A DNA stretch of 64,000 nucleotides from Pseudomonadota bacterium (GTDB taxonomy: Bacteria; Pseudomonadota; Alphaproteobacteria; SP197): the NCBI GenBank assembly GCA_039028155.1, contig JBCCIS010000007.1:67624-131623 (forward strand). The letters run 5' to 3'. How positions within the stretch are numbered: the stretch's first letter is position 1; every line of letters begins with the position of its first letter. Positions 54,001 to 60,000 of this stretch are shown in pieces. The position numbers were made by a program.

Positions 54001-57000
54001 GATTGAACGTGGCGCTCTCAAATGGCGTGTCGGCCAGGACCTCGTTGGCGACCCACACGGCAATCGGTATGCGTGTCGCGTAAACCACGGCGAGCAGGAC
54101 CAGTACGAGACCAAACCCCACCGCCGCTATCAACGCGAGGCGCCGGCGCGGCCGCTTGGGCTGCGGCGGTTCAGTCATGGGAAACTGCAAGGGCGGGCTG
54201 GGACCGAGGCGCCGTCATGGCACCATCATAGCACCGGGTCGACAAAGACACATGGCCGGCGTCACCGTGCCATCACACGGATGACGGCGGTTCGCCGGTC
54301 ACAATGTCGCGACCGGCAACCAAGGATGGTGTCGGGTGCCTAGCTTGCTGCCGCCACCGCGCGTTGCGCCATGACGGTGACCAGGTGCGCGCGATAGTCG
54401 GCGCCGGCGTGGATATCGCTGTTCATGTCATCGTCCGGGACATGGATGCTGGCAAGCACCTGATCGCTGAAACTCGCTGCCAACGCCTGCTCCATCTCCG
54501 CGACACGGAAGACGCATGGGCCTGCGCCGGTCACGGCGACACGGATTCCATCCACCGTTTCGGCGACCATCACACCGACAATCGCGTAACGCGATGCCGG
54601 GTTGGGAAACTTGGCATAGCTGGCTCGGCGCGGCTTGGGGAAGCTGACGGCGGTGATGAGTTCGCCGTCGTCGAGCGCGGTCTCGAACATGCCGGCGAAG
54701 AATTCATCGGCCGCGATGTCGCGTTTGTTCGTGTGAACCGTCGCCGCCAAACCAAGGACCGCCGCCGGATAATCGGCGGCCGGGTCGTTATTGGCGAGCG
54801 ATCCGCCGATGGTACCGCGGTTGCGCACCTGGAAGTCGCCGATGCCGCCCGCAAGTTCGGCCAAGGCCGGGATCGCAGCGCGCACGTCAGCCGACGTCGC
54901 AACATCGTTATGGGATGTGCCGGCGCCGACCCTGACGCCTTGACCGTCAACCGTGATTCCCTTGAGATCGCCAAGGCCGCCAAGATCAATCAGATCGGAC
55001 GGACCGGCAAGACGCAGCTTCATGCTGGGCAGAAGGGTGTGGCCACCGGCGATGTAGCGGGCATCGTCGGCCCCTTCGAAGAGGCTGGTGGCTTCGTCTA
55101 GAGAAGATGGTTTGTGATAGGCAAAGCTGTACATCGTCCGATCGCCCTCAGCCGCTTGCCATGGATTGGGCGGCGGCCTTAATCGACTTCACGATGTTGT
55201 GGTAGCCGGTACAGCGGCAAAGATTGCCCTCCAGATGATGGCGGATCTCCTGCTCGCTCGGGTCGGGGTTGTTCTTGATGAGATCGATCGCACTCATGAT
55301 CATGCCAGGCGTGCAGAAGCCGCACTGAAGACCGTGATTGTCGCGAAACGCCTCTTGCATCGGGTGGAGCGTGTCGCCGTCGGCGATGCCCTCGATGGTC
55401 GTGATGTCGTGGCCGTCGGCCTGGACGGCGAGCAGCGTGCAGGATTTGACCGAGGCGCCATCAAGGTGGATGACACAGGCGCCGCACTGGCTGGTGTCAC
55501 AGCCGACATGAGTGCCGGTCAGCCGCAGGTGTTCGCGCAGAAACTGGACGAGCAGGGTACGTTCCTCGACCTCGCCCGTGACCTCTTTTCCGTTCACTGT
55601 CATCGATACGGCGATGGCCATCCGTTTTCTCTCCGTTAATCCGGTCCGCACGGCGCCGCAGCAGCGCCTGGCCGGCAGTTTCGAAGCCTGCCACCGACAG
55701 GTCAAGGAGATGCTGCATTTTGGAGAGGTCGTGGACCGCGCAGACCCCGCGACGTATGCTCTGCGCGGATCGGTCGAACACGTGAGGATAAGGATTTATG
55801 GCAGGACACGGTCATAACGAACCGGAATCAGACATCGCGATCAGGGTCAAGGCGATGGAAAGTCTGTTGGCCGAGAAGGGGCTGGTGGACCCGGTCGGCA
55901 TCGACCATCTGGTCGACTATTACGAAACCCGCGTCGGCCCGCGCAACGGTGCCGCCGTGGTCGCGCGCGCCTGGACCGATCCGGACTACAAAGCGCGCCT
56001 GCTGGACGATGCCAGCGCAGCCATCGCCGAGCTGGGTTTTTCCGGGCTGCAGGGCGAGAACATGGTGGTGGTGGAGAACACACCGAAGGTCCACAACATC
56101 GTCGTCTGCACGCTGTGCTCGTGTTATCCGTGGCCGGTGCTCGGCCTGCCGCCGGTCTGGTACAAGAGTCCACCTTACCGCTCGCGCGTCGTGCGTGAGC
56201 CGCGCGCGGTCCTGGGCGAGTTCGGCCTTGCCGTGCCGAAGGATGTCGAGGTGCGCGTCTGGGATTCCAGTGCCGAGATCCGTTATCTGGTCCTGCCCAT
56301 GCAGCCCGAGGGTACCGCTGGCAAGAGCGAGGAAGAGCTGGCCACGCTGGTGACGCGCGACGGCATGATCGGCGTCGCGGCGGTCTAGGGGGACATCATG
56401 GACGGCATACATGACATGGGCGGCATGCATGGCTTTGGCCGTGTTGAACGCGAAGAAGACGAACCGGTGTTCCATCACGAGTGGGAGAAACGCGCGTTCG
56501 GTATCTCACTCCAGGTAGCCGACAGCGTCGGCTTCGTCGATGATCACCTGCGCCGCAGCATCGAGCGTGTTCCCGCCGATACGTACCTGCGGGTGACGTA
56601 TTACGAGCTTTGGATGCGTTCGATAGAGGCGATCCTTGAAGAGAAAGGCGTACTGACAATCGCCGAAATCGATCAGCGTGTCGAGGAGCTGAAGCGGGGT
56701 GAAGGCAATGGGTGAGGTAACCTTCGAAGAGATTGTTGCGGCGGTCGAAGGTGGTGCCACGACGCGCAGGCCCGATGTCAAGATCGAGCCGCGTTTCAAG
56801 GTCGGCGACGTCGTACGCGTGAAGAAGGGGCACCCGTCCCATCACACGCGGTCGACACGCTACTCGCGCGGCAAGACGGGCGAGGTGGTGAAAGCCCACG
56901 GTGTCTTTGTCTATCCGGATACAAACTCCGAATGGCAGGGCGAAGACCCACAGCATGTCTATACGGTCTGTTTTTCAGCCAGAGAGATTTGGGGCGAGGA

Positions 57001-60000
57001 TGGCGTCGATGGCGATTCCCTTTGCCTTGATCTTTGGGAACCCTACTTGGAGCAACCATGACAACGGGTGCACCTGAAGACATTGTTCGCGCGGTACCCT
57101 CGTCCGAAGGCGAACCGGTCTTTCAAGAGCCGTGGCAGGCGCGGATATTCGCCGTCGTATCACGCCTCGCCATGGACGGCCGATTTCCGTGGGATGACTT
57201 CAAGGAGAACCTTATCGCCGAGATCGGCAGCGGCGGGCCGGACGACACGACGGACTACTACATCCACTTCGCCAAGGCGTGCGAGAACCTGTTGACGACC
57301 AACGGCATGCTGGATGCCGCGGACCTCGAGGCCCTCACGGCCGAGCTGAAAGCCCATCCGCCGCACCCCAATTCGTCGCCGCCCGGCCCCATCACTGTCG
57401 ATAAGGCTAGCTCGACCTAGGATGGTGCGTTGGCTGCGCCGCGTGTCGCTCGATCCAGTCTCAGGCCGACCCAATAGATCATCGCGACCAGGATGATCGA
57501 GATATAGGCATCAATGGCGTAATGCCAGCCGAGGTAGACCGAGCTGAAACTGATGACGGCGACAAAGAGCCACGCCAGCGCGCCCCACCACTTACCGAAG
57601 AGTTCGCGAACAAAGAACGCGTTCAGCGTCACGATCGCGACATGCAGACTGGGCACGGCGGATATCCCGCTTCCCGGACCGACCGCCCTGGCCTCATAGT
57701 TTTGCCAGAGGTAGGTGCTGAGGTACTTGACGAGTGAATCGCCAGCGTTCAGTTGGTCAATGAACGCGTTGAGGTCGGCAAAGCGCTGGGCGTCACCGGT
57801 TGCGCCGGCATAGAACACCGGTCCGGCGCTCATCGTCAGGGCTGCTATAACATTGCCGAGCAGGCCCCAAGTCAGCATCATGCTAATGATGTAGCGCGTG
57901 CGAACTTGGTCGGCACGGCGACAAACACAGACCCAGAATGCGAAGCCGGTCCAATAAACCAACCAGGTCTGATGGTAGTTGCGATCGAGCCACCGCCCGA
58001 ACACATCGGGATCGAGAAGCCAGTGAGTCACGATCCAGGGGTCGCCCCCATGAAGGAACGCGTCGATCTGTGCCAAAGACTCTTCATAGGGAAAGCCCGC
58101 GCTGAACGGTAGGACGGTCTTGACCGTCGAATAGGACGCCATCATCGGGATGAACAGCGCGATCAGTACGAGACCGACACTCAGCCTTGCCCAGTAATCG
58201 GACGAGGCTAACGACGGCGCTGGTCTGTCCGATTGCGTGAAGCAACGGAATACATCGCCCGCGAGCGTGCCGATCAGGAACAACGGTATGAAGACGATCA
58301 GTGAGTAGTTCGTGAACAGCGTGACATAGCGCGGCACAAGCGCGTCGATGTTGAAGCTGCCGGCGAGCGACAGATAGATGAAGGCGGCGGCCACATAGAG
58401 CAGAACCGCCCCATAGGTCGCCGCATCGTTCATGACATAGCGCGCGATGTGGCGAAGCAGATTGGCGACACCGGTTTGAAGCGGAAGCCGACGCGCGCCC
58501 GCCGACGGATCGTTTGCCGTGGCCGCGGCGACGGTGCGTGTCGAATCAGGAGCCAAGGTTCCTTCGGCGGCAGGTACGAGGGTCATTCAGACGATCCGAA
58601 CTGGCCGAGATGTGCATCAGATGCCCAGCGCCCGACAATTCGCGCGTCGCTTGCCGGTCCTCGCTGGGACAACGTGACTCAAGCTAAGAGATACTGGTAA
58701 CGCACACAGATGATCACGGTCACACTTGCCGCAGACACCGATCCTGTTGGTCAACAGCCAAAGGTGGGGCCAAAGGCCCGGAATCGCTTGGTTTTTTGCG
58801 TCGACGTTCATGTTTGTGCGGTGTTGATATCGCCCCGCTTTACTCCAAGAGCCAAATCGCGATAAGCGCGACCGCCGCACCCAGCATGGCAGCGACAAGC
58901 CACCTGACTGTTGTCGGCGATGACGATCGATCGTCGACATGGCTCAGGACGTCGGGAACGGCGGCTGGTTCCGGTGTTTCTGTTTCGTCAGGTTCTTCCG
59001 TCGCTGGCGCTTCGTCGGTTGCCAGGAGGTCATCGAACGCACCGAAAAACTCGTCGGCAAGCTTCTTGCCGGTGCCTTCGACGAGCCGTGCGCCGACCTG
59101 GGCGATCTTGCCACCAACTTGACCGGTGGCCTGGTAGCGCAACAGAGTCCCACCGCCATCGGCATCGCTCAAGGTCACGTCGGCACTGCCTTTGGCGAAG
59201 CCGGCGACGCCGCCTTTGCCTTCTCCGGCGATGGTGTAGCCTTCGGGCGGGTTCAGGTTGGACAGCGTGACCGCGCCTTTGAATGTCGCCTGCACCGGTC
59301 CGATCTTGGATTTGATGGTCGCCGTCATCTCGGTCGGAGACTGCTTTTCGATTTCCTGGCAGCCGGGGATCGCCTGTTTCAGGATTTCCGGATCGTTGAG
59401 CGCGTCCCACACGCGTTCGCGCGTCGCGTTGATCGTGTACTCCCCTGCGAACTCCATCCTCTCTCCTTTGAAGGTTCGGGTTGCCTATGTCTAAAGGCCT
59501 TGTATCAGATCGAACAACAAGATCAGGCCAAAGGCGATGACGACCGCCAGCACGGTGACCGTCATGTTGAGGTCGCGGGCAAGCACGCCGCTGACGCCGT
59601 GGACGCGCTCAAGCGCCGCAACGAGGTCCTGAAACCAGCGCATCGCGGTCTGACGCATGGCGCGGTCAGCTGCGCCAACGGTGCGGCCGACGACCTTGGC
59701 CAACCACGGCCCGACCAGGCGGTAGAGCGTGTCGGTGTCGAGCGATATCGTCAGCGTGCGCTTCATCAGCGGCAACAGCACGAAGAAGGCGAGACCGGCG
59801 AACAACAGCAACTGCGTCATGTGAAGGACATGCCCAACCGTATAGGGCACATAGTCCACGGGGTAGGGCAGCAGCGCATAGAGTGGTTCGGGATAGACGC
59901 CGATCGCGATGCACAGAAAGGCGAAGATGATCATCGCCCAGCGCATGGAGGCCGGCGGGTCCGAAGGCCTGAGGCCCGAATCCTTCTGGAAAAAGACAAA

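Follow-up and report, generated by a model that had tools for sequence, protein, structure and literature searches.

What does it mean when an enzyme subunit that is ordinarily a single chain is encoded by two overlapping open reading frames (ORFs)? The question is raised by a nitrile hydratase (NHase) operon in a 64,000-nucleotide stretch, here called the window, of contig JBCCIS010000007.1 from a pseudomonadotan metagenome-assembled genome (MAG). The genes for the alpha subunit, for the N-terminal half of the beta subunit (betaN), for its C-terminal half (betaC) and for an accessory, or activator, protein follow each other there on one strand (Table 1). The interruption of beta could reflect damage, a site of recoding, the mark of an unusual substrate, or simply a natural gene structure. 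The last is the best explanation, with a probability of about 0.85: a four-gene, translationally coupled operon for a cobalt-type (Co-type) NHase whose beta subunit is naturally two polypeptides, cut at the interdomain linker.

The alpha protein matches PF02979 (E=1.5e-89) and scores 310.1 bits on TIGR01323, above the cutoff of 249.85, and its best matches in the PDB are the Co-type NHase alpha chains 3qxe_A and 1ire_A. A threonine within the CTLCSC metal-binding claw marks the cobalt type, and the claw of the window alpha reads VCTLCSCY. The only beta domain matched by betaN is PF21006 (positions 1-98 of 115, E=1.2e-31), and the only one matched by betaC is PF02211 (positions 6-97 of 98, E=2.8e-31), and so both canonical beta domains are present near full length, carried on two ORFs. 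Profile E-values of this order lie well outside what chance would produce. On the 226 positions of the TIGR03888 model betaN spans 1-98 and betaC 116-225, and neither half alone, at 105.1 and 116.6 bits, reaches the whole-protein cutoff of 152.2 bits. The accessory protein and betaN are paralogues, ~30% identical to each other, and the former too matches PF21006 (6.4e-12). The claw, the TIGR01323 score, the two beta domains and the accessory gene together point to a Co-type NHase. In the GenBank source record betaN is labelled 'hypothetical protein AAF563_05960' and betaC 'SH3-like domain-containing protein'.

The cut falls between the two domains. In the numbering of 1ire_B, the alignment of betaN to solved Co-type beta chains spans residues 1-96 and that of betaC residues 119-224 (E=1.6e-29 for betaC against that part of 1ire_B). 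Joined end to end, the two halves come to 105+117=222 aa and run colinear with the single-chain beta (223 aa) of loci L005 and L007, the closest fused relatives, in which the linker …EGGRAEGGSDLSL… stands where the split version has …RGEGNG (stop)/MGEVTF…. This colinearity, 222 against 223 aa, indicates that the break is in the interdomain linker and that no sequence was lost. The conserved beta residues are divided between the halves. R52, Y68 and W72 lie on betaN, where they and Y69 are invariant among stand-alone homologues (31 homologues for R52, Y68 and W72), and R48 lies on betaC, where it aligns with beta residue 157 of P. thermophila (Arg; 1ire_B/7w8m_B). Arg52, Tyr68 and Arg157 of the P. 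thermophila beta chain are active-site contact residues, and in NHase structures the oxidised cysteine ligands are held by the two beta arginines. Because the arginines with these established roles sit on separate halves, we infer that the active site requires alpha, betaN and betaC together.

The split is not confined to one assembly. A circular, long-read genome of 5.5 Mb (L001) and a second sample (L002) share with the window all four genes, the ATGGGTGA junction and the flanking genes. The window betaC is identical to a GenBank MAG protein and is 82% identical to that of the L001-type relative. Comparison with L001 gives dN/dS values of 0.068 for alpha, 0.045 for betaN, 0.122 for betaC and 0.051 for the accessory protein, with synonymous sites close to saturated; none of the four genes is disrupted, and all are under purifying selection. 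Independent sources contributed the seven members (102-105 aa) of the 90%-identity cluster to which betaN belongs. Some 70 stand-alone betaN proteins (100-105 aa) range in identity from 92% to as low as 42%, and all of them stop at one position, give or take a few residues. At 50% betaN identity the order alpha-betaN-betaC-accessory is also found in a 3.1 Mb genome, L003.

A sequence-only reading of the locus had anticipated much of this. All its coordinates hold, and so do the Co-type alpha subunit, the division of beta over two ORFs within the linker, the coupled overlaps (ATGGGTGA between betaN and betaC, ATGA at the start of the accessory gene) and the opinion that an accidental frameshift would not have left such an arrangement. 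The survey of orthologues that it proposed found the same split at 24-26 of 80 loci, and L001 and L002 share the exact junction. Its assignment of the operon to a three-polypeptide Co-type NHase with its own accessory protein gains from the conservation of the four-gene layout and from the separate start that betaC appears to have.

How betaC is translated is best considered from the junction. The two frames overlap there by 8 nt with an offset of +1. There is an alternative GTG start for betaC at 56699, and the ATG at 56708 is the sole start common to the window and the orthologues L001 and L008, all three of which have the ATGGGTGA junction. At the other junctions of the 24 split loci considered the arrangement is mostly TGATG or TAATG, with a 1-nt overlap, and in some it is ATGA; that of L003 is an in-frame TAG followed by ATG. 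Across the split lineages the frame offset can be 0, +1 or -1, and the overlap or gap ranges from -17 to +5 nt. An ATG is nevertheless found no more than 17 nt from the betaN stop in every one of the 24, and 18 of them have GGAG, GAGG or AGGA 4-16 nt upstream of the junction start; the background for such motifs in these loci is 10%. A varied geometry combined with a constant ATG and a frequent Shine-Dalgarno-like motif argues for separate, coupled initiation rather than for a conserved recoding signal, and the junction sequences fit a betaC that would initiate separately while translationally coupled to betaN.

These features also bear on the alternative that survives best, which is that a programmed +1 frameshift at GGG-TGA, in the manner of RF2, or else read-through of the stop codon, yields a single-chain beta. 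The A-ATG-GGT-GA of the window, L001 and L008 would let the Gly-tRNA shift from GGG onto GGT at the stop, the product, with ...GNG-EVTF... across the junction, would be colinear with the fused relatives, and there is a purine-rich stretch upstream of the junction. No single recoding mechanism, however, fits the range of offsets and spacings just described, every lineage has its own ATG, of the eight bases conserved at the junction six simply make up the start and stop codons, and the Streptomyces canus enzyme considered below functions as separate polypeptides. With junction geometry and offset varying, and ATG and Shine-Dalgarno-like motif constant, programmed frameshifting was judged unlikely.

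On separate initiation, betaC would be translated from its own ATG by termination-reinitiation or by coupled initiation, giving betaN and betaC in equal amounts. By homology, alpha, betaN and betaC would then assemble as (alpha-betaN-betaC)2, the stoichiometry being that reported for the S. canus enzyme; cobalt would be bound in the CTLCSC claw of alpha with its oxidised cysteines, and the accessory protein, itself related to betaN, would load the metal by self-subunit swapping. The enzyme would hydrate nitriles to amides, its predicted activity most likely being ordinary nitrile hydration of small aliphatic or aromatic substrates. No new kind of chemistry is indicated.

Relatives of the window operon with 68% (betaN) and 60% (betaC) identity have an ordinary fused beta. 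In a neighbour-joining tree of concatenated alpha, betaN and betaC (71 loci, 370 columns, 100 bootstraps) the split window and L001 cluster with the fused L005, L006 and L007 at 99% bootstrap, and the split L008 lies outside at 82%. Two further clades, at 90% and 75% bootstrap, are likewise mixed, and parsimony on the full tree requires a minimum of nine changes between split and fused states. The two states interleave on the tree, fission and fusion both recurring. As L008 shares the ATGGGTGA junction, a split ancestor with re-fusion in L005-L007 is more economical than two identical fissions, and such an ancestor, with later re-fusion, may be the history of this clade. Within the alpha-first NHase lineage of proteobacteria the split is an evolutionarily labile state of gene structure and does not mark a special function.

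The fused sister clade of the window has features of its own. No accessory gene was detected in L005-L007, L005 being uninformative in this respect with ~300 nt after beta. In L007 the fused beta is ATGA-coupled (from ~4669) to an ORF of ~300 aa that, by the look of its sequence, is a putative sulfotransferase, and in L006 there is a frame break within the beta gene, either an error or a pseudogene.

Four points tell against the natural two-polypeptide operon, or against parts of it. In the window itself the betaC ATG is preceded by only a weak Shine-Dalgarno match (GAAGG). Assembly, stoichiometry, metal and substrate are all predictions from homology. No amidase adjoins the operon, the sole amidase-family gene in the window being 38 kb away. 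The neighbour-joining tree is built on 370 columns, and many of its deep nodes are weakly supported.

Precedents exist for an NHase of three polypeptides. In Streptomyces canus AnhDEA the betaN and betaC equivalents are separate polypeptides (10.4 and 11.35 kDa), both needed for activity, and the enzyme is reported as AnhD2E2A2 (PMC7329996). It resembles the window enzyme in being Co-type, with beta as N- and C-half polypeptides, and in subunit size (10.4, 11.35 and 21.3 kDa against 12.2, 13.2 and 21.3 kDa). It differs in gene order, betaN-betaC-alpha without an activator gene as opposed to alpha-betaN-betaC followed by the accessory gene; in that AnhD, the betaN of S. canus, is reported to be itself the cobalt and subunit-swapping chaperone, for which the window has a dedicated accessory gene; and in its host, an actinomycete rather than a proteobacterium. 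Since none of 29 surveyed beta-first loci is split, the Streptomyces split seems independent in origin, and the S. canus type probably arose separately from the present one.

A plasmid-encoded enzyme of Microvirga flocculans is, as summarised in PMC11573777, an alphaproteobacterial three-subunit Co-type NHase with two beta-type genes. Its gene order in that summary is beta-alpha-beta, whereas in the window the beta genes are adjacent, overlapping and downstream of alpha. The canonical alpha-beta-accessory operon of Pseudomonas putida NRRL-18668 (P14K; PDB 3qxe) has the same order, accessory family, alpha motif and beta residues as the window operon, and its 3qxe/3qyh chains are matched by alpha at E=1.9e-88, by betaN at ~1e-21 and by betaC at ~1e-27; its beta, however, is a single 219-aa chain, and the present cut lies between the regions aligning to its residues 1-91 and 117-217. 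Further afield, the thiocyanate hydrolase (SCNase) of Thiobacillus thioparus (PDB 2dd4) is a three-subunit member of the superfamily whose 126-aa alpha subunit matches betaC, though it catalyzes another reaction and belongs to another family model. The other two SCNase subunits correspond to betaN and to NHase alpha. The present operon is a proteobacterial, alpha-first, accessory-containing version of already documented three-subunit NHases.

ToyJKL of Streptomyces rimosus, set against the window locus by description, also has three subunits rather than two. The sequence-only reading had cited it as its one three-subunit precedent, to which the S. canus and M. flocculans enzymes, and the same split in thiocyanate hydrolase, are to be added. 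It had gone on to suggest a possibly unusual substrate range, and had raised a link to a TGT paralogue in the window as speculation. A ToyJKL-like enzyme acting on 7-cyano-7-deazapurines (toyocamycin or preQ0), perhaps tied to that paralogue, now looks very improbable, more so than frameshifting. What can be said for it is the three-polypeptide composition and the presence in the window of the diverged TGT gene. That gene, however, lies 27 kb from the operon within a distinct operon-like trio whose other two members are 16S rRNA methyltransferase genes, and the link to it finds no support. ToyJKL lies in the toyA-M deazapurine nucleoside cluster, while the present locus is without such a context and has an accessory gene. 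Genes of the toyB, C, D and M types are not among the called neighbours of L001, L002 and L003 or the window ORFs, which were scanned in part, nor are deazapurine-type genes found among the inspected conserved neighbour clusters of 80 related loci. The remark that no deazapurine genes are in view thus stands for the flanks of the window operon, for the related loci examined and for the scanned part of the window. Membership of a toy-type cluster is contradicted directly by the flanks, which comprise CoxS/CoxM-like, YdbH-like, PAP2, CoxG and Mrp-antiporter genes. ToyJ, the alpha subunit, alone suffices for activity and a fully modified active site in the account that PMC7329996 gives, citing Nelp et al. 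2014, an account that sits poorly with the presence of an accessory protein here.

Nor does the split by itself speak to substrate. It is uninformative in this regard because close relatives carry an ordinary fused beta and the alpha subunit is of the standard NHase type, nearest to the Co-type enzymes of P. putida and P. thermophila; the unusual substrate range once suggested on account of the split is not borne out.

A still smaller likelihood attaches to the idea that an indel introduced in sequencing or assembly accounts for the split, or that a normal beta gene has recently been frameshifted and is decaying as a pseudogene. The source is a MAG, the frame break in the fused relative L006 illustrates that such cases occur in these data, and the omission of both halves from the RefSeq-derived gene table of an Agrobacterium vitis plasmid, discussed below, suggests treatment as a pseudogene by annotation pipelines. 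The independent assemblies with an identical junction, one of them circular and long-read, the seven betaN cluster members of like length from different sources, and the dN/dS of 0.045 for betaN and 0.12 for betaC at near-saturated synonymous divergence effectively refute it, and the retention of the split position down to 42% identity and the well-placed ATG and Shine-Dalgarno-like motifs over 24 lineages point the same way. Equally remote is a thiocyanate hydrolase, the other enzyme of the superfamily whose beta equivalent is in two subunits, a possibility suggested by the match of betaC to the 126-aa 2dd4_A (E=3e-7) and of the window alpha to the SCNase gamma subunit. It was rejected on family-model cutoffs, since alpha scores only 200.9 bits on TIGR03887 (cutoff 291.45) as against its above-cutoff score on the NHase alpha model. 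The match of betaC to NHase beta chains, at 1e-29, is the stronger one, the operon includes an NHase accessory gene, and the near relatives are NHases of the ordinary kind, in some cases with an amidase next to them.

How widespread is the arrangement? A scan of species representatives, one genome per species, provided the 80 closest loci, which were classed by BLAST searches of all their ORFs with the four window proteins. This sample is skewed to split forms, as the query alignment was built from split proteins, and it contains 24-26 split loci, all alpha-betaN-betaC(-accessory), ~25 fused alpha-first loci, 29 fused beta-first loci and a few that are truncated or odd. The split is also present in isolates, for example Halomicronema sp. 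CCY15110, Aquicoccus sp. SU-CL01552 and Paracraurococcus lichenis. A less biased measure comes from searching 1.84 billion cluster representatives exhaustively with betaC (HMMER): among the 149 nearest 50%-identity betaC clusters 79 are fused, 43 are complete and stand-alone, and 27 are partial or unclear. With about a third of these clusters stand-alone, the layout is not the rarity it had first seemed.

Two plasmids from cultured bacteria illustrate both the layout and its fate in annotation. Burkholderia sp. SFA1 plasmid p3 has alpha followed by genes for proteins of 106, 115 and 118 aa and then CobW and an amidase; its beta halves overlap by 8 nt (ATGCTTAA) and the three small genes are all annotated 'hypothetical'. 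On Agrobacterium vitis plasmid pRvVAR0630a the order is amidase, transporter, nthA, betaN (102 aa), betaC, accessory, CbtB and CbtA, with a TGATG junction, and the intact betaN and betaC ORFs (L085 2687-3348) are missing from the distributed RefSeq-derived gene table, where both were probably omitted as a flagged pseudogene. CobW in the one and CbtB/CbtA in the other are cobalt-handling neighbours. Among the related loci in general the sole recurrent meaningful neighbours are a signature amidase and a short-chain dehydrogenase, each at 11 loci. The layout is common in environmental bacteria, both in the sequence databases and on plasmids of cultured Agrobacterium and Burkholderia. In the openly searchable, non-subscription literature there was no description of an alpha-first, accessory-containing split-beta operon and no prior proteobacterial survey; only the Streptomyces and Microvirga cases were found.

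For enzyme mining the consequence is practical. A beta subunit in two pieces is overlooked by annotation pipelines, and about one-third of the nearest relatives could be dropped as incomplete or as pseudogenes, which touches the uses of NHases in acrylamide production, nicotinamide production and pesticide clean-up. For evolution there is a natural series of repeated fission and fusion at one linker, with close split and fused pairs available for comparison, and for mechanism a stand-alone betaN beside its own paralogue, the accessory protein, makes a convenient test system for self-subunit swapping. A more ambitious proposal, unlikely, though less so than the alternatives weighed above, is that split-beta enzymes form a large, unrecognised and systematically mis-annotated proteobacterial class that has repeatedly toggled between fission and re-fusion, in which free betaN, besides being a structural half, serves as a swapping or cobalt chaperone, as AnhD is reported to do. 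If that were so, a split-beta ancestor would be the source of the betaN-like accessory activators, and the split would give a selectable advantage in assembly or maturation.

Table 1. Positions within the window of the NHase operon, its landmarks and the other genes mentioned.
Feature	Position	Strand	Details
92-bp divergent intergenic region 5' of alpha	55706..55797	.	presumed promoter region; AAGGA ribosome-binding site before alpha ATG
NHase alpha, Co-type	55798..56388	+	196 aa, 21.3 kDa; GenBank MEM7120801.1
Metal-binding claw V-C-T-L-C-S-C-Y	56104..56127	+	alpha residues 103-110, read from sequence
betaN, beta N-terminal half	56398..56715	+	105 aa, 12.2 kDa; bears R52, Y68, W72
betaN/betaC junction ATGGGTGA	56708..56715	+	8-nt overlap, frame offset +1; betaN stop TGA 56713-56715
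betaC, beta C-terminal half, SH3-like barrel	56708..57061	+	117 aa, 13.2 kDa; bears R48
ATGA overlap, betaC stop/accessory start	57058..57061	+	read from sequence
Accessory (activator) protein	57058..57420	+	120 aa, 12.9 kDa; TIGR03889 62.6 bits (cutoff 46)
Amidase-signature protein	16313-17737	-	PF01425, 2.8e-88
Rmt/FmrO-family 16S rRNA G1405 methyltransferase-like	27667-28473	-	228.5 bits (cutoff 250)
Diverged TGT	28470-29552	-	Tgt equivalog 260.8 bits (cutoff 306.75)
RsmI-like 16S rRNA C1402 2'-O-methyltransferase	29549-30319	-	
ADP-forming acyl-CoA ligase with GNAT domain	42796-45492		
MobA/MocA-like	45489-47096		
CoxE VWA	48087-49310		
CoxD-like AAA	49307-50236		
YdbH-like	50888-54190		1100 aa
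CoxM	54340-55134		
CoxS	55148-55705		
CoxG	58840-59457		

A scan of the operon for promoters gave no match to the sigma-70 consensus, and a scan of it for terminators gave terminator-like matches only at background level. Of the flanking genes, those that are CoxS- and CoxM-like are divergent from the operon and that for the PAP2-family membrane protein is convergent with it; these, CoxG and the Mrp-type antiporter genes are found in the same setting around the orthologue. The operon lies inside a scattered cox-like gene set (45489-59457), near which no large molybdopterin subunit was seen. A further ORF in the window encodes an ADP-forming acyl-CoA ligase with a GNAT domain, and the amidase-signature protein in Table 1 is the only amidase found in the window. 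The minus-strand trio that includes the diverged TGT gene (27667-30319) has adjacent ORFs that overlap by 4 nt, and a TGT paralogue flanked by two 16S rRNA methyltransferase genes is an unusual arrangement.

Several of the surveyed loci depart from the common layouts. In an alphaproteobacterial MAG (CAUVXB020000002.1; L021 4001-6925) the betaC of a split-beta locus runs to about residue 58, where a reverse-transcriptase ORF of 528 aa intervenes that contains YADD and resembles that of a group II intron, and the remainder of betaC and the accessory gene are found ~2 kb downstream. A gammaproteobacterial MAG (JAWKZG010000003.1; L057 3378-4333) has alpha and a 110-aa betaN with neither betaC nor an accessory gene next; the gene that follows is a convergent 360-aa ORF, judged from its translation to be a putative 4-hydroxyphenylpyruvate dioxygenase, and this could be an operon in decay or else a pair consisting of alpha and betaN. 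In a clade of split-beta loci with L064, L066 and L078 (~4660-6100), betaC is followed by an ORF whose N-terminus is accessory-like and which also contains an additional betaC-like domain, and in L064 and L066 yet another ORF with a betaC-like domain comes next. Lastly, L016 (3333-5328) and L017 (3551-5334) have one alpha, then two or three tandem full-length beta paralogues, and then the accessory gene.

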